Translations under genes and position numbers: made by a program | In this document: in pieces, positions 954 through 21,291 of the stretch | Layout of the letters: every line of letters begins with the position of its first letter | How positions within the stretch are numbered: position 1 is the first letter of the stretch | NCBI GenBank assembly: GCA_022646745.1 | Contig: CP060262.1 | Location: forward strand, 150,001 to 182,000 | Direction: 5' to 3' | Source of the DNA: Planctomycetales bacterium | GTDB lineage: Bacteria > 4484-113 > JAFGCY01 | DNA: 32,000 nucleotides | The notes under the pieces: generated by a model | Told to the model about the DNA's origin: nothing | The model's database searches: none | What the model saw: only the letters and a program-made list of their open reading frames with translations

Positions 954-1811
954 TCAGGACTTCCCTCCAACCTCCGCACTCCTCACTCCAACCTTCTTCT
1001 TGAGTACCACCAGCGCAATCCCGCCGAGGATCACCACGCTGCAGATTGCCAGCCTCGGCGTAAGCACCTCGCCCAGCAGCAGCACCCCACCCAGCGCGGC
1101 GATCGGCGGCACGCTGAGCTGCACCGTGGCCGCCGTGACCGAGGCCAGCGAGCGTAGTGCGGCATACCACAGCACGTAGCCGATACCGGATGCCAGTGCG
1201 CCGGAGAGCACCGCCCAGCCCCAGCCATCCAGCTTCTGCTGGGTGAACTGCGCCAGCGCCAGCCACAGCAGGATGGCCGGCAGGGCAGCGCGGATGAAGT
1301 TGCCGGCGGTGGCGGCGGCCGGGTTGGCAATACCCTTGCCGCGCAGGGAATAGATCCCCCAGGCGACGCCGGCGGCCAGCATGAACAGTGAGCTCACAAG
1401 CGGCGGCTGGCTGAGGCCCGGCAGCAGCAGGTAGAGCACGCCGGCGGCCGCCAGCAGGAAACCGGCGAGGCGCAGGCCGGACAGCCGCTCGCCGCGGGAC
1501 AGGCCGTAGCCGATCATCGTCACCTGCACGGCACCGAACAGCAACAGCGCGCCGGTGGCGGCACTCAGCTGCATGTAGGCCGCGGAGAAGAAGCCGGCGT
1601 AGGCCAAAAGCGCCAGGGCGGAGGGCCAGTTGCCCTGCACACGCTGGCGGTGGACCAGCATCATCAGCCACAGCATCGCCGCGCCGGACAGCACACGCAG
1701 CATGGTGAAGGACGCCGGGTCGATGCTGCCTGAGGCCAGCGCCAGGCGGCAGATGATCGAATTGCCGGCGAAGGCCAGCATCGCCAGCGCGGTGAGGATG
1801 AGGGTGGTCAT
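954..1811 (-). CDS. EamA/DMT-superfamily permease (10-TM drug/metabolite transporter family)
   Basis: 285-aa ORF with an ATG at 1809-1811. It is hydrophobic throughout, with two-halves EamA-like organisation (N-terminus MTTLILTALAMLAFAGNSIICRLAL). The overlapping ORFs at 922..1671 and 1031..1330 are Arg/Pro/Ala-rich alternative-frame artefacts. Confidence 0.8.
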   Translation of the reverse strand: MTTLILTALAMLAFAGNSIICRLALASGSIDPASFTMLRVLSGAAMLWLMMLVHRQRVQGNWPSALALLAYAGFFSAAYMQLSAATGALLLFGAVQVTMIGYGLSRGERLSGLRLAGFLLAAAGVLYLLLPGLSQPPLVSSLFMLAAGVAWGIYSLRGKGIANPAAATAGNFIRAALPAILLWLALAQFTQQKLDGWGWAVLSGALASGIGYVLWYAALRSLASVTAATVQLSVPPIAALGGVLLLGEVLTPRLAICSVVILGGIALVVLKKKVGVRSAEVGGKS

Positions 1812-1993: not shown

Positions 1994-2140
1994 TCGCCTC
2001 GCATACGCTCGGGTGGCACCGGGGTCAGCGAAGTGGTTTTCTAAACGCGGAGTCGCGGAGACGCTGAGGAAAACGGACGTGCGAAACTGGTTTGCGCACA
2101 ATGGATCGCAATGAATGTACTCGATCTGGCAATGCCGCAA
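1994..2140. repeat. Third copy of the ~150-bp intergenic repeat family also present at 6191-6337 and 6347-6500
   Basis: Shared blocks: tcgc(a)tacgctcggg; gtggttttctaaacgcggag versus atggttttctttaacgcgaag; ctcgatctggcaatgc versus ctcgatctggcccatgc. Confidence 0.5.
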
Positions 2141-2261
2141 TCCTCCCCGTGCCCTCACCACTCTGCTACCCCCAACAACCTGGCTCCTACGTCCTCACCC
2201 GCCGCCGGCCGGATTGCCATCCCCACCCTGGGCGATCAAGCCTGCGGCCTGACTAATCTGC

Positions 2262-2322
2262 CGTCTCACGCAAGCGCTCGACGGTCTGGCGCTGCGGCTG
2301 CGCATTCGCGCATCCGGGTCTC
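2262..2322. repeat. Dispersed copy of the repeat family found at 20901-21291
   Basis: tctcacgcaagcgctcgacggtctg matches cctcacgcaagcgctcggcggtctg at 20911 and 20988. The following gcgctgcggctgcgcattcgcgcatccgggtc is the reverse complement of gacccggatgcgcgaatgcgcagccgcag at about 21107. Confidence 0.6.
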
Positions 2323-2572
2323 GCTGAACTCACTACACCCGGGATGTCCGGCGGCTGATGGGATGAGCGGCGCAAATCGGTTACTTTGTTTGGGTTATAT
2401 CAATTGGCAACAACAGGACACCCTGCACGATGTTCACACAAGGATTGCCAAAGGAGATGAAAAAGGGGGTAACAAAAAAGCCGAAATCAGCCTAGACTGA
2501 GTAACCCGCCGGAGGGGCAACTGTCAGGTGATTACCGTCACTGTACACATAGGCACTCAAACAGTACATCAA

Positions 2573-2788
2573 TTAATCTTCTCTTTTCTCAAAGATCAAT
2601 TCCCATTCATATACTGCATCATTATCACCATCATGCTCAATGAAACCGATTAGATCTTCAAACGCATGGATTTCTCCTTGGTTAACAATTCGATCAACGC
2701 AACGATAACCTCGGCGATCACCTTCCTCTATGTACGTGCCGGCTTCCTGGACAGTTCCAGTAAACTCATACTTAAACTTAGTTGGCAT
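2573..2788 (-). CDS. Small acidic hypothetical protein (71 aa), third gene of the low-GC islet
   Basis: ATG preceded by AAGGAG (minus strand gttcAAGGAGtaggttATG). D/E-rich. Separated from the upstream gene by a 240-bp AT-rich spacer. Confidence 0.6.
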   Translation of the reverse strand: MPTKFKYEFTGTVQEAGTYIEEGDRRGYRCVDRIVNQGEIHAFEDLIGFIEHDGDNDAVYEWELIFEKRED

Positions 2789-3028
2789 AACCTACTCCTT
2801 GAACTAGTATAGACATTCAGAAATCACTATAACACATTTATTGTCCTACTACTTATTCTGATTCTCGAATCAACAGTTTACAACATTCACCGCAAGATTG
2901 TGAGATTCAGTGTGCTATCAATAAGAAATTAAGAAGATAATGGTCAATGCAACTAACCATGATTGACAACGCTGCCGTACAATTAGATTAATGATCTGAG
3001 CTTAATTGCTACAGAAAGTTCTGCAAGA

Positions 3029-4051
3029 TTACGCAAATAAGTCCATCTGCTTATTTTGTTCTTGATTGCTAACAACCTGCCTGGAAAATTTTCTCGCAAC
3101 AGATTTCTTACTTAGAATATCCGCAGCAAATTTTCCTATGTTCTTTCTATTCTCATAGACAGGTCTGTAATTCCATTTAACATTCGAAGCTGAAACTGAT
3201 ATGAAGTCATTATCAGCTGCGAATTTTATTGACTTCCTTAACTGTCGCTGCTCTTCTTCGATTGAACTCATTAACTCAATACAACTCAACAATTTATCCT
3301 GTTGAATTTCCGAGTTTTCTTGCACTTCTCCGTTGCTTGTTTGCGCATAGACAATTTTATACATCTCGTAAACATATTCAATTCGATGTACAGGACTAAG
3401 CCCATCATTCGTTGTTAGGTAATCAATGCCATAATGTTCAATATCATCTATTTTTATCTTCACATCATCATCAAAAACAGCCCCAAGTAGTTTAGATCCT
3501 GATTTTATTCCGTATAGGTCTATATGGTTTGTATCCTCTCGCCTTAACCTAAGACCAACACCACTCGTATTCATTGATTTTGATACTGCAGACCAAACAC
3601 CACAATCACTTATTGAAGTGTAATTAGAAGTTTCATTTCTTAATCTTGTAATATCATCATCTTCTATAATCAGCAACTTGTGATAGTTTGGGTTTCTAAC
3701 ATGAAGCTTCTTCCCCTCTATTATTATCTCGTTGACTTGACCCATCCTATTAATTTGCTCATGAAGTTCTTTGCTTTGTTTATCTGGCATGTATCCTGCC
3801 TTATACTCGCAAATCACCAGATCTTTATCTCGTTGCAACAACAAGTCTGGTCTGTATGTCCTTCCATCTATACAGCGAATCATTGGCCAACGATAAACTT
3901 TACCCTGAACAAATCTTTGCCACCAAAACGATAATCCGTCTATTACGGATTTTGTCTTATTGCAGATATCATACTTAGCTTGATAATCATTAAACTTATA
4001 GTAATAGTGGTCTTTCTTTTCCTGCTTAACTGGGAGTGGCGGTTTTCTCAT
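3029..4051 (-). CDS. Hypothetical protein with an N-terminal PD-(D/E)xK (restriction-endonuclease-like) nuclease motif
   Basis: 340-aa ORF with an ATG at 4049-4051 preceded by GGAGAGG. Motif TYRPD(69)LLLQRDKDLVIC-E(82)YK(84), encoded at about 3800-3850, has the form PD-x12-ExK. I recognise nothing in the C-terminal ~230 aa. Confidence 0.7.
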   Translation of the reverse strand: MRKPPLPVKQEKKDHYYYKFNDYQAKYDICNKTKSVIDGLSFWWQRFVQGKVYRWPMIRCIDGRTYRPDLLLQRDKDLVICEYKAGYMPDKQSKELHEQINRMGQVNEIIIEGKKLHVRNPNYHKLLIIEDDDITRLRNETSNYTSISDCGVWSAVSKSMNTSGVGLRLRREDTNHIDLYGIKSGSKLLGAVFDDDVKIKIDDIEHYGIDYLTTNDGLSPVHRIEYVYEMYKIVYAQTSNGEVQENSEIQQDKLLSCIELMSSIEEEQRQLRKSIKFAADNDFISVSASNVKWNYRPVYENRKNIGKFAADILSKKSVARKFSRQVVSNQEQNKQMDLFA

Positions 4052-5039
4052 TGTGCCTCTCCAAGTTGAAATTCACATCAATTGTATCTAGTATATCCAA
4101 CATAAAGGTTCTATCTGCAGACTTGGAAGCACTGAGGTAGATGTTTAACTTGTATCCACCATCGACTTCCATTCTGTAAAATTTAAGTGAGACTACACCA
4201 CCAGACCACTTGCTAAATATTTTCAAGGATACTCTTTCTTCTTCGGTACCCCAAGATACACTGTGTCCATGTTGATACAATTCACTATTTAGTGCAGAGA
4301 ATAGATGCTCCTCCTCCTTAATCGAACGTAAAACAAAGCTATAAAATCCGGTAACACGATTATTGGTATAACTTTCTAATCTATCCTCTATTAACTCTAT
4401 TCTCTCTAGCATGGAAGGAATAAGTAATTCCCATGAATATGGGTCAATTCCATTCTTGTTATATATTTGAAAGTATCTATCAAGTGAAAACAGTGGTTTT
4501 TTTATCTGTACTCTGTCCAAGTATTCATTTCCTATTTCAAGAGTAGCGCGAAGCTGATCTAAATACCTTTCATTAACATATTTCTGTTTTTTCCCTGTTC
4601 TGGCATAAGAATTACTTGACGCCAAGAACAGCAAGTCCTGCCCCGTTACTTTATTAAATTGCTCAAGTAGGCTTAGGAATTCATCGTTTGACATTATGAT
4701 TGGCTCAATTCCAATACTAGGGTTGAACAACAAGTAATTCCGTAGGAATAGTCGAATCTTATACTCATTGGAGTTGATTATCAGAAAGCGGAAATCACTA
4801 GTATTTGTCAGTACAACTGGATATTCAGTTATCTGAATCTCATTTGGCTCCCCACCCCAATAAAATGTAGCACGGATATTACTTGTACCAACTCTGACTA
4901 GCTCAACAGTTCCAATTGTGTTTTCCTGCCATGTTCCAATATTATGATCCAATTCTTCCCAGCAGTTGTTGAACACTCTAACAGGAATTGCCAAGTGTTC
5001 TCTCCAATCAAGTTGCTGGAATAGTTTTATATCTATCAT
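4026..5039 (-). CDS. Hypothetical protein (337 aa), first gene of the low-GC islet; no recognisable motif
   Basis: ATG at 5037-5039, only 2 nt after the moxR TAG. A GGAG lies 5 nt upstream, within the moxR 3' end. Its 3' end overlaps the next gene by 26 nt. No Walker A or other signature was seen. Confidence 0.65.
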   Translation of the reverse strand: MIDIKLFQQLDWREHLAIPVRVFNNCWEELDHNIGTWQENTIGTVELVRVGTSNIRATFYWGGEPNEIQITEYPVVLTNTSDFRFLIINSNEYKIRLFLRNYLLFNPSIGIEPIIMSNDEFLSLLEQFNKVTGQDLLFLASSNSYARTGKKQKYVNERYLDQLRATLEIGNEYLDRVQIKKPLFSLDRYFQIYNKNGIDPYSWELLIPSMLERIELIEDRLESYTNNRVTGFYSFVLRSIKEEEHLFSALNSELYQHGHSVSWGTEEERVSLKIFSKWSGGVVSLKFYRMEVDGGYKLNIYLSASKSADRTFMLDILDTIDVNFNLERHNEKTATPS

Positions 5040-5041
5040 AC

Positions 5042-6079
5042 CTACTCCGCGGTCGTCTGAACACTCGCGATGATGTCCTTCACCACCTTGTCGCTCGACA
5101 CGCCCTCGGCCTCGGCCTCGAAGTTGAGGATCGTGCGGTGCCTAAGCACCGGCAATGCCACGCGGCGGATGTCGTCGTAGCTGAGGTTGAAGCGGTTGTC
5201 GAGCAGGGCGAGCACCTTGCCGCAGAGGATCAGGGCCTGCACGGCGCGCGGGCTGGCGCCGTAGCGCACGTAGCGGCGCACGCTCTCCGGCGCGCGCACG
5301 TTGTCAACATGCGTGGCCATCGCCAGGCGCACCGCATAGCGCACCACATGCTCGGCCGCCGGCACCTGGCGCACGATCTTCTTCATCTCGATGATGCGCG
5401 CGCCCTTCACCGCCGGCTGCACGGTGGCGAACTTCGCCGTGGTGGTGCGGTCGATCACCTCCATCAGCTCGTCCTCGCTCGGGTAGTCCACGTTGATCTT
5501 CAGCATGAAGCGGTCGAGCTGCGCCTCCGGCAGGGGGTAGGTGCCCTCCTGCTCCAGCGGGTTCTGCGTTGCCAGCACCAAAAACGGCGGCGGCAGCTCG
5601 CGGCGCTCGCCGTAGACCGTCACGCTGCGCTCCTGCATGCTTTCGAGCATGGCGGACTGCGTCTTCGGCGTGGCACGGTTGATCTCGTCGGCGAGGATGA
5701 TGTTGGCGAAGATCGGGCCGGGGATGAACTTGTAGGCCTTGTGGCCGTGCTCATCCTCCTCGATGATGTTCGTACCGGTGATGTCCGCGGGCATCAGGTC
5801 CGGCGTGAACTGGATGCGGTTGAAGTCGAGGTCGATCGCGTCAGCCAGCGTGCGGATCAAGAGTGTCTTGGCCAGGCCGGGGACACCCTCGAGCAGGGCG
5901 TGGCCATCGGCGAACAGGGTGACCAGCACTTCCTCGATCACGGCCTTCTGGCCGACGATCACCTTGCCGACTTCTGACTCAATGGCCCGGTAGTCCGTCT
6001 GGAACTCCTGGCAGATGCGCTGTACATCAGCGGGGGAAATATTGCTCAGATCCATGTCCTCTCCACTAGTTCGATCCAT
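5042..6079 (-). CDS. moxR: MoxR-family AAA+ ATPase
   Basis: Walker A LLEGVPGLAKT, Walker B ILADEINRA, sensor region LATQNPLEQEGTYPLPEAQLDRF. The start is probably ATG 6079 (MDRTSGED) or ATG 6055 (MDLSN, preceded by GGAGAGG). The ORF-track start at 6199 lies in repeat DNA. The antisense ORF 4988..5977 is rejected. Confidence 0.88.
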   Translation of the reverse strand: MDRTSGEDMDLSNISPADVQRICQEFQTDYRAIESEVGKVIVGQKAVIEEVLVTLFADGHALLEGVPGLAKTLLIRTLADAIDLDFNRIQFTPDLMPADITGTNIIEEDEHGHKAYKFIPGPIFANIILADEINRATPKTQSAMLESMQERSVTVYGERRELPPPFLVLATQNPLEQEGTYPLPEAQLDRFMLKINVDYPSEDELMEVIDRTTTAKFATVQPAVKGARIIEMKKIVRQVPAAEHVVRYAVRLAMATHVDNVRAPESVRRYVRYGASPRAVQALILCGKVLALLDNRFNLSYDDIRRVALPVLRHRTILNFEAEAEGVSSDKVVKDIIASVQTTAE

Positions 6080-6510: not shown

Positions 6511-7617
6511 TCATTGCGCGCTGTCGCTGCTGCTGTCCGCTGCCGGGGCCGGTGGAGCCTCCGCAGCAGCGGATCCAGCTTCCTGTGCCGGCAGTTCCTC
6601 CAGGCCGGGCAGTTCCTCGAGCCTGATGTTACCACCGCTGAGCTGTCCGACCTCCAGCTCGTGCCAGTTGTCGCTTTCGTCGAAGCTGCGCACCCGCACA
6701 ACGGCTGAGCCATGGCGAATGGCGAGCGGGGTCTGCACCACCAGCGGCCGGCCGCCGCCGGCGTACTCGAGGAAGATGGTCAGGCCACTGAGGCTGAAGC
6801 GCAGGCCCGGCAGGCTGGCATCGCCGAGCCTGAACTGGGCCGCCGGGTAGTTGCCGGCCTCAACCGGACGGGGGCCGAGGCGCAGCTGCTGTAGGCGCCC
6901 GCCGTTTTCCAGCTCCAGCCAGAAGGCGCGGTCGCGCCTGAGCAGCCAGGGCAGGAAGCCGCCGATGAACATCCCGGCGATGAAGCCCGCCAGCAGCATG
7001 CAGATCGAAAGCTGGAACATACTGCCGGACTCTACCGCCAAGCGGCTGAATGGTGCGAGCAGCAGCATGCCGAGCATCCCGCCGATGCTGCCGATCAGCA
7101 GGCCCCACTCACCGGGCAGGTTGTCAACCGCATGCGGCAGCACGACCCAGGCGCCGGCGGCGCAGGTGAAGAACAGCAGCATTTCTACGGGCAGGATCCC
7201 GCTGATGCCGGAGATGCCCTGCACCATGATGTAGAACAGCGCGAACACGCTCAGCAGCAGGCCCGAGATGAGGCTGTGGAGGATCGCCAGCGGCAGCATC
7301 CTGCGCAGTCCGAGGAAGGGGTTGCGGCGGATGCCCAGCAGCGCCTGCCAGACAAGGGACAGAAGCGGCAGCAGAACCAGCATGCCGCCCAGCAGGCCGA
7401 TGATCATGCTGGCGCCGACATAGAGCAGCAGGGTGCCGAACAGGTTGATGAGCTGCATGAGCCCGGGGGTGGCGCTGATGTTGTTGAAAACGGCGGCCAC
7501 ATAGCTGACCCCGTCCTGCAGCAGGCCGGCGGCAGCCACCAGCGGCAGGCTGGCCAGCAGCCAGGCGAGGCCGAAGCCGAGGATGGCACCAAGGCGCGTC
7601 AGGAAACCTTGCGGCAT
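6511..7617 (-). CDS. Polytopic membrane protein with a C-terminal soluble domain of about 110 aa and an acidic/Ala-Pro tail; function unknown
   Basis: The start is taken at ATG 7615-7617 (MPQGFLTRLGAILGFGLAWLL). There are about 6-7 hydrophobic helices, then RRDRAFWLELENGG...VVRVRSFDESDNWHELEV. No clear SD was seen. The 501-nt upstream extension of the listed ORF (to 8118) runs antisense into the lipoprotein gene and is rejected. Confidence 0.6.
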   Translation of the reverse strand: MPQGFLTRLGAILGFGLAWLLASLPLVAAAGLLQDGVSYVAAVFNNISATPGLMQLINLFGTLLLYVGASMIIGLLGGMLVLLPLLSLVWQALLGIRRNPFLGLRRMLPLAILHSLISGLLLSVFALFYIMVQGISGISGILPVEMLLFFTCAAGAWVVLPHAVDNLPGEWGLLIGSIGGMLGMLLLAPFSRLAVESGSMFQLSICMLLAGFIAGMFIGGFLPWLLRRDRAFWLELENGGRLQQLRLGPRPVEAGNYPAAQFRLGDASLPGLRFSLSGLTIFLEYAGGGRPLVVQTPLAIRHGSAVVRVRSFDESDNWHELEVGQLSGGNIRLEELPGLEELPAQEAGSAAAEAPPAPAADSSSDSAQ

Positions 7618-7737
7618 GCAACATGATACGCGCAGTGGCGCACGGAAGTGTTCAGTGGAGGCCGGCGCAGGGCTGCATGGAAATGGGGAAACACTGATCA
7701 AATGAATGTACATCCGCCAGGCGGCCCGGTGGGCAGA

Positions 7738-7746
7738 TGTTAAATT
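7738..7746 (+). promoter_or_regulatory. Extended -10-like motif TGTTAAATT upstream of lipoprotein paralog 1
   Basis: TGnTAnnTT lies 28 nt before ATG 7775. The same motif class sits at a similar distance before paralogs 2, 3 and 4. Confidence 0.35.
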
Positions 7747-7774
7747 TGGGATGACCTTCGGCAAGGAGAATTCC

Positions 7775-10378
7775 ATGCACCGTACCCTTACCCTATTGAT
7801 TTTCATTGCACTGCTCGCGGCATCCTGCGGCGGCAGTGCCACTCCCGGAACTGTCCAGCAGGCGGCTGAAAGCCCGCTGACTGGCCAGCTGGCGGACAAC
7901 GGCAGACTGCCGGAGGACGGCCTGCTGCCCTGGGAAAGCCTCAACGAGAACGGTTTCGTGGATCCCGCGACGGCGCGGCGCTCGACGGCAATCAATGAGA
8001 ACAGTGAATTCTGGCGCGGAGTGGATGCCTGGCAGACCGCCGGCAGCACGACGGCCACGGGCCAGGCCCTGCGGCTGGACAGCGGCAGCGCGGGCAGCGG
8101 TGAGCGCAGCAGCGCCACCTACCGCATCCCGTTGGCCGGCGAGAACCCGGCGATCCTGTCCACCGACATCAACCTGCGCAGCCGCGACGACGCCAGCGCC
8201 AGTGATTTCTTCATCAGCATCGCCAACTTCAGCAGCGGACGCTGGGACTGGTTCGGCCCCTTCAGTGACGGCCGCATCCGGCTGCCGCTGGATGAAGCTG
8301 CGACCGGGAACTACATCTCCGGACTGGGCAACGCCTTCGTGAGCGTGGCGGCCTACAACGGCAGCAGCTTTGACATCGTCGGAATCTCGCTCAACCAGTT
8401 CGACCCGGGCGATGCGACGGCACCCCCCGCCCCGAGCGGACTGAGCCTGGCGGCAAGAGTCGGCGCGGTGGAAATGCAGTGGAACGGCGTGATCGCAGCT
8501 GACCTCGCCGGCTATGCGATTTACTACAGTGACAAGACCTTCGTGAATCCGGGCAGTGCCGGGGTGAAGCAGCTCAACTACCTTGAGGGCGGCACGCGCC
8601 ACCTGCTCAGCGGTGTGAGCGGGACGGTATTCGTGGCCGTCAGTGCACTGGACCTCAGCGGCAACGAGAGCGCGATCTCCAGCGTGGAGAGCACCGCCGT
8701 GATCGCCGGTGATGGCCCAGTGCTCGAGCTGCTGGCGGGCAGCACGGAGGGTATCGTCGGCCAGCCGATCTCCCTGACGGCCAGCGGCTCGCCAGCCTTT
8801 GACTGGGACCTCGATGGCGACGGCACCTTTGAGGTGACAGGCGATGTGTCCGGCAGCCAGATTGCCGACACCGGCAAGGCGGGCATCATCCGCCCGGCGG
8901 TGCGCGGCTCCGATGGTTCCACGGCGGTGGCACTCGGCGCGGTCAGCCTCATCGTGGCCAGCGACCTGCCCCCGGTGGCGATCCTGACCGCCAACCGCAC
9001 CAAGGGTGCGATCATCGACGGCGGCACAAGTCCGCTCAACGTGCAGTTTGACGGTGGCAACAGCTATGACGACGGTCCGACACTGGATTACTCCTTCAGC
9101 CCGCTCGGTGATGGCAACTACTCCACTCCCTCATCGAATGCCAACTACAACCAGGGCTACTCCAGCTCCGGGCAGTACACGGCGATGATGCGCATCGAGG
9201 ACAGCGCCGGCCAGCAGGCGCTGGCCCTGCTGCCGATCCGCGTGGAGCAGGTGACGGGATTCAAGAACTACGTCGTCTATCCCGGCTACAACAGCGGCAT
9301 CTACGGCTGCATGGCAGTGGTCGCCGGCCGCCCGGCGGTGCTGTTCCGCAAGTTCGGCCCGACCCCGGACGACGATGGCCTGTTCTACAGCCGTGCAATG
9401 GATGACGGCGGCAGGCTGTGGGGAGAGCCGGTCAAGCTGGCTGACAACAACAACTATGGCGACTACTTCGACCTTGCCGTGATCGCAGGCAACCCGGCGA
9501 TCGCCTGGTACAAGTTCAGCGCGAACAAGGTGTTCTACCGCCGCGCCAGCAGCAGCACCGGCCAGACCCTGTCCGACTGGAACAACCCGGGATTCGAGAT
9601 CTCCGGGGTACTCAGTGTCAGCGACGAGGTCAGGCTGCTGGAGGTTTCCGGCAACCCGGCCGTGATCTGGACCGACGGCTCTGACATCAAGTACGTGCGT
9701 GCGACCGGCGGCTCCGGTACCGGTGACTTCGCCGGGGACTGGACGGACGCGCCCTTCAACATCGTGGCCGCTTCCAACATCGGCCCACGACCGGACTTCG
9801 CCATGATTGCCGGCAACCCGGCGATCGCCTACTGGAACACCGGCACCAATGAGGCCTGCTATGTGAGGGCGACTTCCGCCAGCGGTTCCAGTGCACTGGA
9901 CTGGCCGGCCACTCCCGTGGTTGTGGATGGCAGCGACACCTGTACTGGACGTGTCAACCTGCTGCAGGTGAATGGCGCACCGGCGATCAGCTTCTTTGAC
10001 AGCGCCGACGATTCCGATATCCATTACACCCGTGCCACCACGGCAACCGGCACCGACATGGCAGACTGGCCGGTGGCGGTTTCCGTCAACCACGGGTTCG
10101 GCAGTGGCAATACCTGGCACGACCTGGCGATCATCTCCGGCAGGCCGGCGATCGCCTATGCTGACTACCGTTCCGGAGCAGCGACCTCGTACCGCCGGGC
10201 GAATGATGCCAACGGTTCGTCCTGGGGCGATCCGATGAGGGTCGGATCCAACATCGACTACAACGACTCGATGTACGAGCGGGTCGACCTGGAGGACCTG
10301 AACGGCTTCCCGGTAGTCTATAACCACTACCAGAGCTGGGACCGTGGGGTCGTCAGCGTGCTGGAAAGTGAGTTGTAG
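7775..10378 (+). CDS. Surface lipoprotein paralog 1: N-terminal beta-sandwich-like region, FN3, 2x PKD-like, 7-repeat GNPAIAY propeller
   Basis: ATG 7775 is preceded by AAGGAGAA. Signal peptide and lipobox MHRTLTLLIFIALLAASC. FN3-like APPAPSGLSLAARVGAVEMQWNGVIAADLAGYAIYY. PKD-like FDWDLDGDGTFEV and a second PKD-like segment. Seven ~45-aa repeats (AGRPAVLF, AGNPAIAW, SGNPAVIW, AGNPAIAY, NGAPAISF, SGRPAIAY, NGFPVVY). Confidence 0.85.
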   Translation: MHRTLTLLIFIALLAASCGGSATPGTVQQAAESPLTGQLADNGRLPEDGLLPWESLNENGFVDPATARRSTAINENSEFWRGVDAWQTAGSTTATGQALRLDSGSAGSGERSSATYRIPLAGENPAILSTDINLRSRDDASASDFFISIANFSSGRWDWFGPFSDGRIRLPLDEAATGNYISGLGNAFVSVAAYNGSSFDIVGISLNQFDPGDATAPPAPSGLSLAARVGAVEMQWNGVIAADLAGYAIYYSDKTFVNPGSAGVKQLNYLEGGTRHLLSGVSGTVFVAVSALDLSGNESAISSVESTAVIAGDGPVLELLAGSTEGIVGQPISLTASGSPAFDWDLDGDGTFEVTGDVSGSQIADTGKAGIIRPAVRGSDGSTAVALGAVSLIVASDLPPVAILTANRTKGAIIDGGTSPLNVQFDGGNSYDDGPTLDYSFSPLGDGNYSTPSSNANYNQGYSSSGQYTAMMRIEDSAGQQALALLPIRVEQVTGFKNYVVYPGYNSGIYGCMAVVAGRPAVLFRKFGPTPDDDGLFYSRAMDDGGRLWGEPVKLADNNNYGDYFDLAVIAGNPAIAWYKFSANKVFYRRASSSTGQTLSDWNNPGFEISGVLSVSDEVRLLEVSGNPAVIWTDGSDIKYVRATGGSGTGDFAGDWTDAPFNIVAASNIGPRPDFAMIAGNPAIAYWNTGTNEACYVRATSASGSSALDWPATPVVVDGSDTCTGRVNLLQVNGAPAISFFDSADDSDIHYTRATTATGTDMADWPVAVSVNHGFGSGNTWHDLAIISGRPAIAYADYRSGAATSYRRANDANGSSWGDPMRVGSNIDYNDSMYERVDLEDLNGFPVVYNHYQSWDRGVVSVLESEL

Positions 10379-10402
10379 CGACCGGTCCAGCTGGCAACAA
10401 CA

Positions 10403-10440
10403 GGCCGCTGTGGGAGTTCCCATGGCGGCCTTTTCATTTC
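10403..10440 (+). terminator. Rho-independent terminator after paralog 1
   Basis: Stem ggccgc..tggga / tccca..gcggcc followed by ttttcatttc. Confidence 0.65.
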
Positions 10441-10479
10441 CGGGGAGCTTCCCTCTGGCAGCTTTCCCGAACAGGCGCA

Positions 10480-10488
10480 TGCTACATT
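10480..10488 (+). promoter_or_regulatory. Extended -10-like motif TGCTACATT upstream of paralog 2
   Basis: Lies 29 nt before ATG 10518. It is identical to the 9-mer before paralog 4. Confidence 0.35.
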
Positions 10489-10517
10489 TGTAGCCAGTTA
10501 ATGCAGAGGAGACTCCT

Positions 10518-13109
10518 ATGCACCGCATCCTGATTCCCCTGATGATCATTGCCCTGTTCGCGGTTTCCTGCGGCGGCAATGCCACTCCCGTACCGGTCCA
10601 GCCCGGCCAGGGAGCACTGACCGACATGCCGGCTGACAACGGGGCAATTCCCGAGGACAGCCTGCTGCCCTGGGAAAGCCTCAACGAGAACGGATTCGTG
10701 GATCCCGCGACGGCGCGGCGCTCCACCGCAATCAACGAGAACAGTGAATTCTGGCGTGGCGTGGATGCCTGGCAGGTGGCCGGCAGCACAACAAATGTGG
10801 GCCAAGCGCTGCGGCTGGACAGCGGCAGTGCGGGCAGCGGTGAGCGCAGCAGCGCCACCTACCGCATCCCGCTCACGGGTGAGAACCCGGCGATCCTGTC
10901 TACCGACATCAACCTGCGCAAGCGCGACGACGACAGTGCCAGCGGGTTCTACATCAGCATCGCCAACTTCGAGACGGGCCGCTGGGACTGGTTCGGTCAG
11001 TACAGCGACGGCCGGATCAGGCTGTCGCTGTCCGAGGCTGCGACGGGGAACTACATCTCCGGACTGGGCAACGCCTTCGTCAGCGTAGTGGCCTACAACG
11101 GCAGCAGCTTCGACATCGTCGGCGTCTCACTCAACCAGTTCGACCCGGCTGATGCGACGGCACCGCCTGCCCCGAGCGGACTGAGCCTGGCGGCACGCGT
11201 CGGCGCGGTGGAAATGCAGTGGAACGGCGTGATCGCAGCTGACCTGGCCGGCTACGCGATCTACTACAGTGACAAGACATTCGTCAACCCGGGCAGTGCC
11301 GGTGTGAAGAAGCTGAATTACCTCGAGGGCGGCACGCGCCACCTGCTCAGCGGTGTGAGCGGGACGGTGTTCGTGGCGGTGTCCGCGGTGGACCTCAGCG
11401 GCAACGAGAGCGCGATCTCCAGCGTGGAGAGCACCGCCGTGATCGCCGGTGACGGCCCGGTGCTCGAGCTGCTGGCCGGCAGCACCGAGGGCATCGTCGG
11501 TGAGCCGATCACGCTGACAGCCAGCGGGTCCCCGGCCTTTGACTGGGACCTCGATGGCGACGGCACGTTTGAGGTGACCGGCGACGTGTCCGGCAGCCAG
11601 CTGGCTGACACCGGCAAGGCGGGCATCCTCCGCCCGGCGGTGCGCGGTTCCGACGGCGCTACGGCTGTGGCACTCGGCGCGGTAAGCCTGATCATCGCCC
11701 AGGACCTGCCGCCGGTGGCGGTGCTGACAGCCAACCGCCTGCGCGGCGCGATCATCAACGGCGAGACCAGCCCGCTGAGCGTGAACTTCAGTGCCGGCCA
11801 GAGTTATGACGACGGCCCGACGCTGGACTTCGCCTGGGCACTGACCGGTGATGCCAGCTTCGGCCCGGCCGGACCGGCTGACAGCAACTCCTACCAGTAT
11901 TCCAAGAGCGGCGTGTTCGTGGCGATGATCCGCGCCGAGGACAGCGCGGGCCAGGTGGCCTATGCCCAGCTGCCGATCAGCGTCGAGCAGGTGACGGGCT
12001 TCCGTGCATCCTTCCTGTGTGACAACCCGGCCGGCCTGTTCGGTTCACTGGCAATCGTGGACGGTCATCCAGCGGTGGCCTTCCGCCGCTTCGGCCCCGG
12101 CGCCGCACTGGACGGCCTGTTCTACAACCGTGCACTGGACAGCGAAGGCAAGCTCTGGGGCGAGCCGGTGCCACTCCAGACCCAGCCGAACTGGGGCGAC
12201 TTCGCTTGCCTGGCGGTGATCGCCGGCAACCCGGCGATCGCCTACAACAACGGCAACGTGCCCGGCATCTGCTACATCCGCGCCAGCTCCAGCACTGGCC
12301 AGACCCTGGCGGACTGGAACAATGCGCCTGTCGTGCTGACAACTCCGGCCTTCGCCTCCGAGGAGATCGAGCTCATCGACCTGAATGGCAACCCGGCGGT
12401 GGTCTGGTTCGACAGCGGTGACATCTGGTTCCAGCGTGCCACCTCCGCCGCCGGAACCGGTGACAACGCCGGTGACTGGGGTGACCCGGCCATTGAGATC
12501 TACAATGCCGGCAACGCCGATGTACGGCCGGATTTCAAGATCATTGACGGCAACCCGGCTGTGGCCTTCCGCCAGTCGGCCGCCAACCAGGCGATGTACC
12601 TGCGTGCCACCAGCAGCACCGGCGCCAGCGCGCTGGACTGGCCGGGCGTGCCAGTCGTGGTCAGTGCAGCTCATACCGTCACCGGGCGCGTCAACCTCGA
12701 GTTCGTCAGCGGCGCCCCGGCGGTCTCCTACTACGAAAGCGGCAACAGCCTGCGCTATACGCGGGCCAACACCAGCACCGGCTCAATTGCGGCCGACTGG
12801 CCGCTGTCAACGGTGATTGACGAGGGCTTCGGCCAGGGCACAACCTGGCATGACCTCGCGATGGTCGGCGGGAGGCCGGCGATCGCCTACGAGGACTTCC
12901 AGTCCGGCCAGCACACGAAGTACCGCCGGGCCAACAACTCGACCGGCAGCTCATGGGGTGAGGAATGGCATGTGGCCCCGCAGAATGACTGGCAGGACTC
13001 GGCCTACATGCGCATCGACCTGGAGGACCTGAACGGCTTCCCGGCGATCTACGTGCACCACCAGAACTTCGACCGGCCTTCGTTCTACACCTTCGACACT
13101 GAACTGTAG
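10518..13109 (+). CDS. Surface lipoprotein paralog 2 (same architecture as paralog 1)
   Basis: GAGGAG SD; MHRILIPLMIIALFAVSC lipobox. Nearly identical to paralog 1 at nucleotide level over about the first 1.2 kb. The second PKD-like segment and the propeller are divergent. Confidence 0.85.
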   Translation: MHRILIPLMIIALFAVSCGGNATPVPVQPGQGALTDMPADNGAIPEDSLLPWESLNENGFVDPATARRSTAINENSEFWRGVDAWQVAGSTTNVGQALRLDSGSAGSGERSSATYRIPLTGENPAILSTDINLRKRDDDSASGFYISIANFETGRWDWFGQYSDGRIRLSLSEAATGNYISGLGNAFVSVVAYNGSSFDIVGVSLNQFDPADATAPPAPSGLSLAARVGAVEMQWNGVIAADLAGYAIYYSDKTFVNPGSAGVKKLNYLEGGTRHLLSGVSGTVFVAVSAVDLSGNESAISSVESTAVIAGDGPVLELLAGSTEGIVGEPITLTASGSPAFDWDLDGDGTFEVTGDVSGSQLADTGKAGILRPAVRGSDGATAVALGAVSLIIAQDLPPVAVLTANRLRGAIINGETSPLSVNFSAGQSYDDGPTLDFAWALTGDASFGPAGPADSNSYQYSKSGVFVAMIRAEDSAGQVAYAQLPISVEQVTGFRASFLCDNPAGLFGSLAIVDGHPAVAFRRFGPGAALDGLFYNRALDSEGKLWGEPVPLQTQPNWGDFACLAVIAGNPAIAYNNGNVPGICYIRASSSTGQTLADWNNAPVVLTTPAFASEEIELIDLNGNPAVVWFDSGDIWFQRATSAAGTGDNAGDWGDPAIEIYNAGNADVRPDFKIIDGNPAVAFRQSAANQAMYLRATSSTGASALDWPGVPVVVSAAHTVTGRVNLEFVSGAPAVSYYESGNSLRYTRANTSTGSIAADWPLSTVIDEGFGQGTTWHDLAMVGGRPAIAYEDFQSGQHTKYRRANNSTGSSWGEEWHVAPQNDWQDSAYMRIDLEDLNGFPAIYVHHQNFDRPSFYTFDTEL

Positions 13110-13136
13110 TCCGGGCCATTGACCTGGCACACCAGG

Positions 13137-13176
13137 GCCGCCGTGGAACTTCTCCACGGCGGCTCTTTTCTGTTTC
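13137..13176 (+). terminator. Rho-independent terminator after paralog 2
   Basis: 11-bp stem gccgccgtgga / tccacggcggc, loop acttc, then tcttttctgttt. Confidence 0.75.
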
Positions 13177-13186
13177 GGCTGCACCA

Positions 13187-13195
13187 TGCTAAGTT
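13187..13195 (+). promoter_or_regulatory. Extended -10-like motif TGCTAAGTT upstream of paralog 3
   Basis: Lies 31 nt before ATG 13227, directly after the preceding terminator. Confidence 0.35.
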
Positions 13196-13226
13196 ATTGC
13201 AGGCTAACAAAGCACGGAGATCCGAC

Positions 13227-15791
13227 ATGCGCCCAATACTTATTGCCATGCTGACAGTCCTGCTTGCTTCCTGCACCGGCAGCAATCCCCAGACTATGGC
13301 GAAACCAGGCAGCAATCCGCTTGATGGAACAGCGCTGGCCGGATCCGGCCCAGTCCCGGATGATACCCTGCTGCCCTGGGAAGGGATCACTGCCGACGGC
13401 ATGGTTGATCCAGCCACCGGCCGGCGTTCCACCGCCATCAACGGAGACAGCGAATTCTGGCGCGGGGTGGACGCCTGGCAGACCGAGGGCAGTGCCTCGC
13501 CAGATGGCCAGGCCCTGGCTCTCAGCAGTGGTGACAGCGGCAGCGGCCAGCGCAGCCAGGCGACCTACCGCATTCCGCTGACGGGGGAGAACCCGGCGAT
13601 GCTGTCAACGGACCTGAACCTGCATCCGCGCAGTGACGGCAGCCAGAGCGAATACAGTATAGGCATCGCGAACTACAGCACGGGCCGCTGGGACTTCCAC
13701 GGCCCGTTCAGCGATGGACGCATCCGCCTGCCGATTGACGCGGCGGCGACGGGGGACTACATCTCCGGGCTTGGCAACTGCTACCTGAGCATAGTTGTCT
13801 ACAACGGCAGTGCGCTGGACATCGTCGGCGTGGCGCTGAACCAGCTGGACCCGGATGATACGAACGCACCTCCCGTACCGACCGGCCTTAGCCTGGCGGC
13901 GGTTGACGGCGGGCTGGAACTGCAGTGGAACAGCGTGCTGGCCGCCGACCTGGCGGGCTACGGTATCTACTGGAGCAACGCGGAATTCAGCGCGCTGGAC
14001 GAGGCAGGCGTGCGCAGCCTGCCCTACCTGGAAGGCAGTACCAGGCACGTGCTGGGCGGGCTCAGCGGACTGACATTCGTGGCGATCACCGCAATGGACC
14101 TGAATGGCAACGAAAGCGGATTCATCATGCTGGATGAAACGGCGGGCACGGGTGATGCCCCCGGCCTGTCACTGGAAGCCCAGGCCACGAGCGGCAGGAC
14201 CGGAGACAGCATCCAGCTGGCCGCCCAGGGGGCCGCGAGCTACGACTGGGACCTGGATGGCGACGGCATCTATGAGGTGACCGGCGACGTCGGCGGAGTG
14301 ATGCCGGCTGACACCGGCAAGGCTGGAATCATCAGGCCCGCGGTGCGCGGCACTGACGGCACAGCGGTCGCCCTGGAGGCGGTCTCACTGATCATCTCGC
14401 AGGACCTGCCGCCCGTTGCGATGCTGTCCACTGACAACGGTGAGGGCGTACTGTTCTACGGGGAGCTCACGCCGTTCAGCTGCAACCTCAGTGCAGCGGG
14501 AAGTTATGATGACGATGCCATCAGCGACTTTTCCTTCAGTCCGCTCGGTGACGGCAGCTTCAGCAGCAACGGCACGGACCCGGGCTTCGCCGCCCAGTAC
14601 GGCAAGCCCGGGCTGTTCTATGCAAGCCTGCGGGTGGAGGACAGTGCCGGCCAGCAGGCCCAGGCAGCTGTGCTGCAGCGGGTGCGCCAGGTCAGCGGCT
14701 TTGAGGCGCGCACCTACAACAACAACGCCAACACCGGACAGATGGCGCATATCGCGGTCGTGGCGGGCAATCCCGCACTGGTCTACAACTCCGCGCTCGG
14801 CCCGGACCTTGACGGCGTCATCTACCAGCGTGCGCTGGACCCGCAGGGGCATATCTGGGGTGATCCCATCGTCCTGCTTGACAATGCCGGGGATGGCGAC
14901 CTGCCGATGCTAGAGATCATCAACGGCAACCCGGCGATCACCTTCCACGACCTCGTTTCCGGGGACCTGATGTACGCGCGTGCCACCAGCAGCACAGGAC
15001 AGAACAAGGTGGACTGGCCGGAAGCGATATCAGTTGACATCGGGCCCGTGGCGCGCAAGCCCGTGCTGAGGGAGGTTGATGGCCAGCCGGCGATAGCCTA
15101 TGTCAGCGGATCAAAGCTGTTCTACGTACGGGCCACCGGCAACAGCGGCAGTTCGGCCGGGGACTGGTCCGTGCCACGCATGGAACTGTACTCGGCCCCC
15201 GGGCTGCAGTGGCTGCCGGAGATGAAGGTGGTGGCCGGCAACCCGGCGATCGGGTTCATCAACCTGGATGACAACGAAGCCCTGTACATGCGGTCCACCA
15301 CGGCGGACGGCGCAAGTGGACTGGACTGGCCGGCGGTGCCGGTGGTCGTCAGCGGTGCCGACCCGGCATCCTCGGTCATCGACCTGGCGGTGATTGACGG
15401 CAACCCGGCGATGACCTACCTTGACCTGAACAGCCTCGGCCTGGTCTACACGCGCTCCAACACCGCGACCGGGACCAATGCGGCGGACTGGCCCAATGCG
15501 ATCGTGATCGACGCTGGCAACCTGCAGGGTGCTGACTTCCAATGCCTGGCGGAGGTTGGCGGCTATCCCGTGGTGGCCTACACCGACACCCAGTTCGGCG
15601 TCCGCACGAATGTCCGTCGCGGGCTGACAACGACCGGCAGCAGCTGGGGACCGGAACTGACGGTCGCCAATCCGGACGATTCAGTCTACTACTGGATCGA
15701 ACTGATCGACCTGCACGGCCTGCCTGCAGTGGCAGTGTACAACACCAGCCGGAGCCAGGGCATGTTCAGCACACCCGGGCTCTACGACTGA
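13227..15791 (+). CDS. Surface lipoprotein paralog 3 (same architecture, most divergent propeller)
   Basis: ATG 13227 (MRPILIAMLTVLLASC) is preceded by ACGGAGA. The listed ORF start at 13119 would read through the terminator hairpin. Its FN3 and PKD-like segments resemble those of paralog 4. Repeats: AGNPALVY, NGNPAITF, DGQPAIAY, AGNPAIGF, DGNPAMTY, GGYPVVAY, HGLPAVAV. Confidence 0.85.
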   Translation: MRPILIAMLTVLLASCTGSNPQTMAKPGSNPLDGTALAGSGPVPDDTLLPWEGITADGMVDPATGRRSTAINGDSEFWRGVDAWQTEGSASPDGQALALSSGDSGSGQRSQATYRIPLTGENPAMLSTDLNLHPRSDGSQSEYSIGIANYSTGRWDFHGPFSDGRIRLPIDAAATGDYISGLGNCYLSIVVYNGSALDIVGVALNQLDPDDTNAPPVPTGLSLAAVDGGLELQWNSVLAADLAGYGIYWSNAEFSALDEAGVRSLPYLEGSTRHVLGGLSGLTFVAITAMDLNGNESGFIMLDETAGTGDAPGLSLEAQATSGRTGDSIQLAAQGAASYDWDLDGDGIYEVTGDVGGVMPADTGKAGIIRPAVRGTDGTAVALEAVSLIISQDLPPVAMLSTDNGEGVLFYGELTPFSCNLSAAGSYDDDAISDFSFSPLGDGSFSSNGTDPGFAAQYGKPGLFYASLRVEDSAGQQAQAAVLQRVRQVSGFEARTYNNNANTGQMAHIAVVAGNPALVYNSALGPDLDGVIYQRALDPQGHIWGDPIVLLDNAGDGDLPMLEIINGNPAITFHDLVSGDLMYARATSSTGQNKVDWPEAISVDIGPVARKPVLREVDGQPAIAYVSGSKLFYVRATGNSGSSAGDWSVPRMELYSAPGLQWLPEMKVVAGNPAIGFINLDDNEALYMRSTTADGASGLDWPAVPVVVSGADPASSVIDLAVIDGNPAMTYLDLNSLGLVYTRSNTATGTNAADWPNAIVIDAGNLQGADFQCLAEVGGYPVVAYTDTQFGVRTNVRRGLTTTGSSWGPELTVANPDDSVYYWIELIDLHGLPAVAVYNTSRSQGMFSTPGLYD

Positions 15792-15800
15792 GGCCTTAGC

Positions 15801-16271
15801 TCAGGCGATGGCAACCATCAGGTCGCAGTGCAGCTTGCCGCCCTGCTCATCGAGGAAGCCGGCGGGGTAATGCTCGAGCGCGACCCAATGCGGGTCGTGG
15901 TGCAGGCCGGCATCCAGCAGCCGGCGGCTGAAGATGTCACCCATCGCGCGCGGCAGCCTGTGCGGGTCGTCATGGAAATGCCAGACGGCGTAGCGCTTCG
16001 AGGGGATGGCGATGCTGTCCAGCCCGGCCGGGATTGCGTCACCGGGCATCAGCCGGACCGCCGTCCAGTAGTGGATGCCCTTGCCACCGGGCATCGGGAT
16101 GCTGATCCCGTAACGGTCCCGTGGTGCATCGGTGCGGCCGAGGAATGCGTTGAGGCGCTGCCAGAGCTCGCTGATCCCCTGGCAGTCGTAGTTCGGGCAG
16201 TCCAGCGCCAGCCCGACCGCCGTCCATTCTCCCATTGTCACGATGCGAGGTTTCAGTGCGACTGTGTCCAT
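15801..16271 (-). CDS. GyrI-like / AraC-effector-binding-fold small-molecule-binding protein (paralog 1)
   Basis: 156 aa, ATG preceded by AGGGAG. Length and pattern (WTAVGL...W..L...., YW.AV....G...P.GLD...IP...YAVW.FH) are typical of GyrI-like/Cass2-like domains. It is clearly paralogous to 19124..19597 and convergent to paralog 3, with only a 9-nt gap. Confidence 0.6.
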   Translation of the reverse strand: MDTVALKPRIVTMGEWTAVGLALDCPNYDCQGISELWQRLNAFLGRTDAPRDRYGISIPMPGGKGIHYWTAVRLMPGDAIPAGLDSIAIPSKRYAVWHFHDDPHRLPRAMGDIFSRRLLDAGLHHDPHWVALEHYPAGFLDEQGGKLHCDLMVAIA

Positions 16272-16400
16272 GGCTACACTCCCTGCAACCCGGCCGGACA
16301 GCCTCCCTGCGCCCGAAACCGGACGCTGTGACCTAACGACAGTGTAACGCCGCGAGAAGGATCCTGCCGGAAAGTGAGTGCCGGGTGGGCACCGGTCAGC

Positions 16401-16409
16401 TGCTACATT
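16401..16409 (+). promoter_or_regulatory. Extended -10-like motif TGCTACATT upstream of paralog 4
   Basis: Lies 42 nt before ATG 16452, in the divergent intergenic region shared with the GyrI-like gene. Confidence 0.35.
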
Positions 16410-16451
16410 AATTCGGGGTGATGCCCGAAAGCGGGATTCCCGGAGGCGATT

Positions 16452-20900: not shown

Positions 20901-21291
20901 TTCTTCTTCCGCCTCACGCAAGCGCTCGGCGGTCTGCAATGCAGCTCAAGGCAAAGCCTTTCGCTGATTGCACATTAGCTCGTATGCCGCCTCACGCAAG
21001 CGCTCGGCGGTCTGCAAATCGGAGCGAAACCAGTTCCGCTCCTCTTGCCCGATCATCGTTCCAGGTCTATTGCCAGACTGATGTCTGGCCTCCAGTACCT
21101 TCAACCCGACCCGGATGCGCGAATGCGCAGCCGCAGGGTCAGACCAGATTCTTCTTCCCGCTCATGCAAGCACTCGCGGGCCTGCATTACAGCTCGAAGC
21201 AAGCTCCTCGCTGATTGCACGGTGCATCTTCCAACCGACAGTACCTTCAGCGCGACTCGCTGGTCGCGAATGCGCCAGCGCAGCGCCAGAC
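20901..21291. repeat. Tandemly duplicated intergenic repeat region (REP/MITE-like family)
   Basis: Unit ttcttcttcc-gcctcacgcaagcgctcggcggtctgcaatgcagctcaaggcaaagc..cgctgattgcac (20901-20973) recurs at 21148-21220. Its core recurs at 20986-21017. A second block, cagtaccttca..gcgcgaatgcgc..gcag..cagac, occurs at 21092-21145 and 21236-21291. A distant copy lies at 2262-2322. Confidence 0.7.

Follow-up and report, generated by a model that had tools for sequence, protein, structure and literature searches.

The two-gene nuclease-effector systems of bacterial defence, among them Hachiman (HamA), Lamassu with its Cap4-type LmuA and the PDC candidates of PADLOC, are compact operons in which a nuclease is encoded next to a partner protein. 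A cassette of like layout is present in a 32,000-nt stretch of DNA from an uncultured bacterium of the UBP7 lineage, deposited as Planctomycetales bacterium (assembly GCA_022646745.1, contig CP060262.1, positions 150,001 to 182,000 of the forward strand; this whole stretch is called the window, and coordinates refer to it unless another locus is named). The cassette fills an AT-rich island and consists of three genes, ORF1, ORF2 and ORF3, at the centre of which is the overlapping pair ORF1 and ORF2, the latter a predicted nuclease of the PD-(D/E)xK superfamily. Unlike the partners in the two-gene systems, ORF1 is not a helicase, an SMC protein or an ATPase, carries no recognisable motif and has no match in PADLOC. 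As with systems that reside in defence hotspots, the island is foreign in composition and occupies a variable site, which in sister genomes holds DrmC-like, dGTPase-like and PDC-S63 genes.

Several described nucleases invite comparison. With members of the PD-(D/E)xK superfamily such as Bax1, the restriction-like endonuclease (RLE) of the R2 retrotransposon, McrC, Hjc and the MmcB-like nucleases, the ORF2 model shares a like core fold and the placement of D and E-x-K, but at the sequence level ORF2 lies outside all Pfam and NCBIfam families, has a domain architecture of its own and lacks the helicase, reverse-transcriptase or GTPase partners of Bax1, R2 and McrC. The modelled domain order is that of TnsA from Tn7, which reportedly joins an N-terminal restriction-like nuclease to a C-terminal winged helix; ORF2, however, matches neither Pfam TnsA_N nor TnsA_C, and TnsA is not among its top 50 PDB fold matches. 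A Tn7-like assignment was rejected, as there are no TnsB, TnsC or TnsD genes and no transposon ends or terminal repeats. Like type IV and orphan type II restriction enzymes, ORF2 is a stand-alone PD-(D/E)xK protein with a predicted DNA-binding domain and no adjacent methyltransferase, and no methyltransferase domain, the mark of a type II restriction-modification system, was found in ORF1, ORF3 or the neighbouring genes. It differs from type IV enzymes in that no Mrr, McrBC, MspJI or GmrSD model is matched, no modification-reader domain is recognisable in ORF1, and the Foldseek matches of ORF2 to McrC and MspJI are weak (expectation value (E) 0.04-0.1). Free-standing homing endonuclease genes are likewise small nuclease inserts beside conserved genes and without a recombinase, but the island has neither multi-site copies nor a homing-family signature, and its site turns over with unrelated cargo.

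The ORF1-ORF2 gene pair

ORF1 (5039..4026, on the minus strand, as are all genes of the island) is the first gene of the pair and encodes an acidic protein of 337 amino acids (aa; pI 5.3) with no recognisable domain, the putative sensor or regulator. ORF2 (4051..3029) encodes a basic protein of 340 aa (pI 8.7), the putative effector, with an N-terminal PD-(D/E)xK nuclease-like domain and a C-terminal winged-helix-like domain. The two reading frames overlap by 26 nt (4026..4051), which suggests translational coupling, and are separated by a 240-nt spacer (2789..3028, GC 0.346) from ORF3 (2788..2573; 71 aa, acidic, pI 4.45), an accessory gene of the island whose ribosome-binding site is AAGGAGTAGGTTATG; GGAG-type ribosome-binding sites stand before all three starts. 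Within the spacer there is no significant RNA structure (z = 0.39) and no sigma-70-like site on the gene strand. An initial annotation, prepared from the letters of the window alone, had described three same-strand reading frames with good ribosome-binding sites (leaving the strand unstated), a 26-nt overlap and a 71-aa acidic product behind a 240-nt AT-rich spacer, and in each of these respects the coordinates agree with it.

Relatives of ORF2 are remote. An exhaustive HMMER scan of 1.84 billion representatives returned three that are full-length, P0002, P0003 and P0004 (E 1.4e-9, 6e-7 and 5e-4), of which P0002 and P0004 match one another at E 6e-27, and the ORF2 family profile recovered no further members. 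In a word-indexed search of 5.8 billion protein clusters ORF2 retrieved only its own fragment and ORF1 had 0 matches. Scans of the JGI metagenomes and IMG/VR with the ORF2 and ORF1 family alignments yielded no relatives, and neither the phages of INPHARED nor the plasmids of PLSDB gave a tblastn match to any of the three proteins, nor did plasmids match the island by blastn. A literature search under the island's accession numbers and locus tags returned nothing relevant.

P0002 is encoded on a 735-kb contig (L092; ERZ25039462 contig_34782) and P0004 in assembly GCA_020849855.1 (L093), each behind an overlapping upstream gene, of 361 and 347 aa, respectively. The corresponding proteins, P0005 and P0006, are remote homologues of ORF1, with significant matches (BLASTP E 3e-8 and 2e-4 against ORF1; 8e-7 against each other). 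The overlap measures 17 nt in L092, 8 nt in L093 and 20 nt on the contigs of P0003, which are short and on which the end of the overlapping upstream gene is visible. Gene order and overlap are the same in L092 and L093 as in the window, a linkage that extends over three or four loci and carries no statistics; the pairing of the 337-aa and 340-aa proteins, which had been proposed as a check, was in this way recovered at two other, very divergent loci. Because an ORF1 homologue overlaps an ORF2 homologue in both contexts and ORF3 has no counterpart, the conserved core is taken to be two genes, and the comparison securely supports the prediction that ORF1 and ORF2 form a selected, translationally coupled two-gene module. 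The two proteins were also considered as paralogues of one another, an idea that was rejected at an hhalign probability of 0.3%.

The same comparison bears on ORF3, for which no homologue was found in family libraries, in IMG/VR or in the phage and plasmid searches above. ORF3 is not homologous to the 88-aa ORF that follows the L093 pair, and in L092 no gene is called directly after the pair. Judged by these alignments it is not part of the conserved unit and is an island-specific accessory, so that of the three-gene cassette originally put forward the ORF1-ORF2 pair is conserved and the third gene has no counterpart elsewhere.

The pairs in L092 and L093 are also situated in low-GC islands (0.33-0.47) in hosts of 0.62-0.72 GC, and both directly follow uvrB in the same orientation, at 33 and 233 nt past its stop, respectively. 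Between these two hosts UvrB is ~50-90% identical by segment and the ORF2 homologues are 23% identical. The uvrB gene of L092 (L092 6766-8951) is called in three fragments, probably owing to frameshift errors of a long-read assembly and not to its being a pseudogene.

Predicted structures of ORF2 and ORF1

The initial annotation had pointed to a PD-x12-ExK signature in the 340-aa protein, and the residues concerned, D69, E82 and K84 (codons 3847-3845, 3808-3806 and 3802-3800, minus strand), are present and invariant in all four members of a family that is only 18-21% identical overall. The motif, D69-x12-E82-x-K84, reads ...YRPD69LLLQRDKDLVICE82YK84AG..., and the positions kept in four of four members are D38, W43, W44, R54, D69, E82, K84 and G86, D38 in helix 1 being a further invariant acidic residue. 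An AlphaFold2 (AF2) model built on the four-sequence family alignment (predicted local distance difference test score (pLDDT) 67.6, predicted template-modelling score (pTM) 0.64) places a helix at 8-48, strands at 51-54, 57-60, 70-74 and 77-84, a helix at 91-104 and further strands over 106-130 (the first at 106-111). With moderate confidence, this arrangement contains the alpha-beta-beta-beta-alpha-beta core of the superfamily, in which D69 stands just ahead of the third core strand (70-74) and E82 and K84 lie within the strand 77-84. On the basis of the model and the invariant motif, the nuclease core is assigned to about aa 50-130 (3662..3904, minus strand).

In the model, the long N-terminal helix and the core are followed by a poorly modelled linker, a winged-helix-like unit and a long terminal helix. 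The winged-helix-like domain (about aa 220-295; 3167..3394, minus strand) comprises helices 220-238, 251-261 and 265-280 and strands 248-250, 284-286 and 290-293, and the block has pLDDT values of 68-90, mostly above 80; its probable role would be DNA binding. Among PDB structures, the top Foldseek match of the model is the R2 RLE (probability 1.00, root-mean-square deviation (rmsd) 4.0 Å, 89 columns), together with Bax1 (probability 0.99, rmsd 3.0-3.4 Å, ~95 columns; 94 at 3.0 Å) and with McrC, AF1548, MGME1 and Hjc (~90-100 columns, rmsd 3-4 Å). BFVD contributes phage nucleases, some MmcB-like and others uncharacterised, with E-values from 8e-6 to 9e-4. We accept ORF2 as a predicted member of the PD-(D/E)xK superfamily that belongs to no named family within it; the model and the alignment together securely indicate that the fold is that of a nuclease, that its catalytic triad is conserved and intact, and that a DNA-binding domain is probably present, and nuclease activity would be expected from this.

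For ORF1, ORF2 and ORF3 alike, no Pfam, NCBIfam, PADLOC or PHROG model was at or near significance; the family searches with the remote relatives were equally empty, P0002, P0004, P0005 and P0006 having no PADLOC match at E <= 0.01. In keeping with this, the initial annotation had seen no recognisable motif in the 337-aa protein and could match the domain order to no named system. Confident homology to a housekeeping pathway or to a known system, which would have told against its reading, was found for none of the three proteins. A single-sequence AF2 model of ORF1 was unusable (pLDDT 40), and a fold search with it gave nothing below E 0.1, its matches being meaningless.

Three identities were considered for ORF1 and dropped. 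A HORMA/Mad2 domain was suggested by one profile match at E 0.16 that was absent with single sequences and in the fold search on the low-confidence model. A PAS domain was abandoned as a lead, the PDB sequence matches being sub-threshold and inconsistent with one another (RPA32, Mad2, MopR, LOV domains and a phage connector protein). The antitoxin of a type II toxin-antitoxin system is small (~70-120 aa), has a DNA-binding fold and overlaps the toxin gene; the overlap is present here, but the partner is 337-361 aa long and has no helix-turn-helix, ribbon-helix-helix or AbrB match.

Island composition and insertion site

The island (2380..5040, minus strand) lies between a host gene for a MoxR-type AAA+ ATPase and the host intergenic DNA upstream of an EamA-family transporter gene, and has a GC of 0.36 against 0.62 for the host. 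Over the block 2540-5039 GC is 0.365. The remaining 244 windows of 2.5 kb average 0.621 (standard deviation (sd) 0.029, minimum 0.559), so that the block falls short of their mean by ~9 sd, and nowhere else in the 32 kb is there another like it. In windows of 300 nt, GC drops from 0.60-0.72 to 0.35-0.38 across ~2500-5040 and returns within one window. The GC of third codon positions is 0.36 in ORF1, 0.33 in ORF2 and 0.32 in ORF3, versus 0.92 in MoxR, 0.89 in EamA and 0.83 in an 890-aa host gene, and on both measures the island deviates from its host as hotspot cargo does. The hand counts with which the low-GC block and its high-GC flanks had first been described (21/60, 18/60 and 40/60) are exact.

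The edges were placed by comparison with a sister genome (L013, see below), in which homology ends exactly at the MoxR stop codon (window 5041) and returns at ~2380; the edges are therefore 5040, 2 nt past the MoxR stop, and ~2380, matching the extent of 2380-5041 given initially. The last part of the island is a non-coding tail (2380..2572, minus strand; GC 0.48 over 2357-2572) with a weak terminator-like hairpin at 2493-2478 and no significant RNA fold (z = -0.53). No tRNA was detected, no Rfam family was matched, nothing meaningful was found in the way of flanking direct or inverted repeats or att-like sites around the island, and the neighbours in the window include no integrase, transposase or phage genes; the lack of tRNA, integrase, transposase and flanking direct repeats accords with the initial description. 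A 129-aa ORF that crosses the right edge on the opposite strand (window 2111-2500, plus strand; L002 4137-4526) is present in public gene calls, has no family match recorded and looks like a spurious high-GC ORF. Just beyond the same edge is a 38-nt GC-rich element (2283-2320) with an inverted copy 19 kb away (21108-21145, 2 mismatches); it is absent at the equivalent place in L013, where there is a 67-nt gap, and may be a repetitive extragenic palindromic (REP)-like element.

At the other edge, the MoxR stop and the ORF1 start are 2 nt apart, and the GGAG ahead of ORF1 is supplied by the last codons of MoxR (GCG GAG TAG). Because there is no promoter-like site between MoxR and ORF1 on the gene strand and the ribosome-binding site overlaps the MoxR stop, the pair is probably transcribed by read-through from MoxR. 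The sequence GGAGTAGGT stands before the start codons of both ORF1 and ORF3 (window 5028-5041 and 2789-2803), and at ORF1 it overlaps the MoxR codons GCG-GAG-TAG; the two sister genomes have GCGGAGTAGG in common before they diverge. Since GGAGTAGGT precedes both starts and overlaps the end of MoxR, up to 8 nt of junction microhomology may be present, which suggests, as a hint, microhomology-mediated insertion.

Judged by MoxR, the closest genomes are two metagenome-assembled genomes (MAGs), 'UBP7 HKST-UBA01' (L013; 99% MoxR aa identity) and AC1.30 (L012; 94%), and both carry other cargo at this site. In L013, the flanking DNA is 92-95% identical to the window and the cargo between MoxR and EamA is entirely different: a low-GC 415-aa gene (P0013, an orphan) and a 266-aa PLD-family nuclease with a double zinc ribbon (L013 11050-13183). 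The nuclease matches Pfam PLDc_2 (1.2e-13) and PADLOC DrmC (7.7e-10), as well as MkoB/C and DpdK; no other DISARM genes are nearby, and the two genes are themselves a candidate two-gene system. The L012 cargo (L012 11524-13988) is on the minus strand, opposite to MoxR, and encodes an HD/dGTPase-like protein (PADLOC dGTPase, 1.7e-9), a 130-aa orphan, a 169-aa protein with a DarG-like stretch (8e-7) and a DUF6933/PDC-S63 protein (Pfam DUF6933, 3.8e-22; PDC-S63, 1e-7). The site has, then, conserved flanks with differing content, and its other occupants include recognisable defence genes, the matches being partial or to single genes and not to complete called systems.

The left breakpoints also differ. 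The window cargo begins 2 nt past the MoxR stop and that of L013 17 nt past it, after a G-rich stretch common to L012, and the differing breakpoints therefore indicate a hotspot of fast turnover and not a fixed attachment site. The empty-site sequence in L012 and L013 is GCGGAGTAGGGGGGGAGAGGGG; no empty site of the same strain was present among the contigs examined.

Assembly support

When the three island proteins and the flanking MoxR and EamA proteins were looked up by exact sequence, matching contigs turned up in more than 12 assemblies or runs, which derive from different samples and from three assembly sources: megahit 'k141' contigs (ERZ27309xxx), 'WANG18-1' scaffolds (ERZ28655xxx) and Logan (SRR7638773, SRR12358676 and SRR776449). 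Their identity to the window is 99.6-100%, and between them they cover both junctions. The MoxR-ORF1 junction is spanned by L002-L007 and L094-L096, and the ORF3-EamA junction by L001, L002, L008, L009 and L011. In all seven contigs that run past its stop codon, the identical MoxR is followed directly by ORF1. Single-nucleotide polymorphisms (SNPs) are few and all in the host flanks, with 0 in the island. In the NCBI record, the genes are hypothetical proteins H7A35_00630 to H7A35_00640 on a 4.11-Mb contig. The island is securely foreign, real and seated in a hotspot.

Flanking genes and other features

The upstream flank is the MoxR-type AAA+ ATPase gene (5042..6055, minus strand; Pfam AAA_3, 6.5e-63). 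A bpMoxR-vWA-beta-propeller ternary system was considered for it and rejected, as AAA_3 is a far better match than bpMoxR (3.5e-13) and no vWA or propeller gene is adjacent. Upstream of MoxR is a 379-aa gene (6511-7650, minus strand) without a Pfam match that is conserved in L012 (8412-9548) and appears membrane-associated; as DUF58 and vWA genes are both absent, this MoxR may in fact have its working partner in that gene. The downstream flank is the EamA-family transporter gene (954..1811, minus strand; Pfam EamA, 9.6e-21), which is conserved beside the L013 cargo. On either side of it are tandem repeats with a 7-nt period (readings of 14 or 21 nt are also possible), ACTGACC x8.4 and GACTACA x6.3, at 820-909 and 1872-1915. 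Behind the gene pair of L093 (11340-11400) there is a comparable array, also of 7-nt units, and such arrays may be an intergenic feature typical of the lineage.

Outside the island, the window encodes ordinary host functions: MoxR, EamA, PKD surface proteins, an acyl-CoA dehydrogenase and type IV pilus/type II secretion system genes. The PKD-domain proteins, probably secreted, are four tandem paralogues of ~865-890 aa (window 7706-19061, plus strand) that are 67-88% identical in DNA to one another and to their copies in L012 and L013.

Discussion

The reading that we favour, with a probability of roughly 0.5, is that the island is a horizontally acquired nuclease-effector defence module, directed against phages or plasmids, and that its uncultured UBP7-lineage host would have acquired it recently. 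It is favoured because of the other occupants of the hotspot, the general pattern of such cassettes and the nuclease fold of ORF2. Under this reading, ORF1 would sense or gate the ORF2 nuclease, licensing it to cleave the DNA of an invader or, as an abortive response, that of the cell itself; the pair would be co-transcribed with MoxR by read-through, and ORF3 would act as an island-specific accessory, possibly a modulator. A defence function, an interaction between ORF1 and ORF2, nuclease activity and co-transcription with MoxR are what genomic context and predicted fold point to.

Several observations weigh against a role in defence. The family amounts to four clusters among ~15 billion proteins and is therefore too rare for the co-occurrence statistics by which defence systems are nominated. 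No protein of the island matches any of the 5027 models of PADLOC-DB v2.0.0 at E <= 1, ORF1 has no assignable fold, and for ORF2 the PDB Foldseek E-values are all above 1e-3 on a model of moderate confidence. PADLOC found no defence genes among the neighbours of the L092 and L093 pairs, so that the idea of a defence neighbourhood holds in part, through the defence-type cargo at the same site in the sister genomes, and fails beside the two remote pairs. Finally, the position of the cassette right behind a conserved gene in three of three loci would also fit a selfish element.

Such an element, the strongest of the alternatives though an unlikely one, would be an addiction module with ORF2 as toxin and ORF1 as neutraliser, or else a free-standing homing-type cassette that cuts cognate vacant sites where conserved genes have their 3' ends and spreads by being copied in when the break is repaired, for which a benefit to the host is not needed. 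All three loci lie downstream of a conserved gene and co-oriented with it (2 nt from MoxR, 33 nt and 233 nt from uvrB), recombinase and repeats are absent, the R2 retrotransposon enzyme is the top fold match in the PDB, and, like the genes of type II toxin-antitoxin pairs, the nuclease gene overlaps that of its upstream partner. In addition, two hosts with UvrB proteins ~50-90% identical carry, at the same place behind uvrB, versions that are only 23% identical. Against this, there is one copy per locus, and neither other sites nor other genomes have yielded a near-identical one: the exact copies are all in one context, and none was found in the 5.8 billion clusters, IMG/VR, JGI, phages or plasmids. 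Further, the MoxR site carries unrelated cargo with other breakpoints in the sister genomes, which argues for hotspot turnover and not for a homing target, ORF1 at 337 aa is much bigger than typical antitoxins, and there is no signature of a known homing-endonuclease family.

It is doubtful that the island is cargo with no part in conflict, or the decaying remnant of a mobile element at a recombination hotspot, with the nuclease-like fold co-opted for regulation or DNA binding. The absence of an assignable function for ORF1 and ORF3, of mobility genes in the island and of defence neighbours in L092 and L093 is what one would expect of such cargo. ORF1 and ORF2 are, however, both intact, and at an identity of 18-25% over three or four loci the genes still occur as an overlapping pair with the catalytic D/E/K residues in place, from which purifying selection on the active site follows; the island is also fixed and SNP-free in the contigs from more than 12 assemblies or runs.

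A more speculative idea, to which we assign a low probability, is that ORF1 and ORF2 are a novel type of minimal self-propagating element, one that dispenses with a recombinase and inserts where conserved genes (MoxR, uvrB) have their 3' ends. Equally tentatively, an R2-RLE-like nuclease and its partner would in that case hitch-hike on the transcription of host genes in GC-rich bacteria. This would explain the gene-end placement in three of three loci, the persistent AT-richness and the divergent versions at the same uvrB site.

Improbable, in our view, is a DNA-repair accessory that would work with a helicase or ATPase encoded upstream (UvrB, MoxR), much as archaeal Bax1 is paired with XPB. 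At two of the three loci the pair comes directly after uvrB on the same strand, and Bax1 is among the best structural matches, but that match is limited to the generic nuclease core, and the foreign composition in all three hosts is unlike that of a core repair gene. The gene ahead of the pair in the window is that for MoxR instead of UvrB, and relatives without the pair have a conserved MoxR too; the family is, besides, far too rare for such a role.

Very improbable is a MoxR-coupled conflict system, in which the host MoxR AAA+ ATPase would remodel interchangeable effector modules encoded downstream. The 2-nt distance between the MoxR stop and the ORF1 start, the L013 cargo, which likewise begins close behind MoxR (36 nt) on the same strand, the weak Pfam bpMoxR match (3.5e-13) and the sub-threshold Mad2/HORMA match of ORF1 (E 0.16) are in its favour, but the L012 cargo is on the opposite strand, no MoxR is found beside the L092 and L093 pairs, the HORMA match falls short of significance and is lost in single-sequence searches, and there is no vWA or beta-propeller partner. 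An assembly chimera or contaminant, that is, a low-GC block misjoined to a high-GC genome, is suggested by nothing beyond the extreme difference in composition and a left edge that is very sharp, and is refuted for practical purposes, as contigs from more than 12 assemblies or runs and three sources span both junctions at 99.6-100% identity, which answers the concern over chimerism raised in the initial annotation.

Returning to the defence module as the preferred reading, both protein families are new at the sequence level and extraordinarily rare, and the theme of a nuclease cassette in a variable hotspot is familiar. What is unusual is the ORF1 family, the lasting AT-richness in GC-rich hosts and the recurrent position at the 3' end of a gene. 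Practical impact is limited, as nuclease-effector cassettes are familiar and the hosts are uncultured. The comparison of a hotspot between sister MAGs, as used here, can nominate systems that are too rare for enrichment statistics. To our knowledge, nothing of this kind has been studied in the candidate phylum UBP7. There is also an evolutionary puzzle in islands of 33-47% GC that last behind conserved genes in hosts of 62-72% GC, and in the very divergent alleles that two hosts carry at the same place behind uvrB. Should the pair prove to be a defence system, the catalogue of bacterial immunity would gain ORF1 as a new partner family and, with ORF2, a new branch of the PD-(D/E)xK nucleases.

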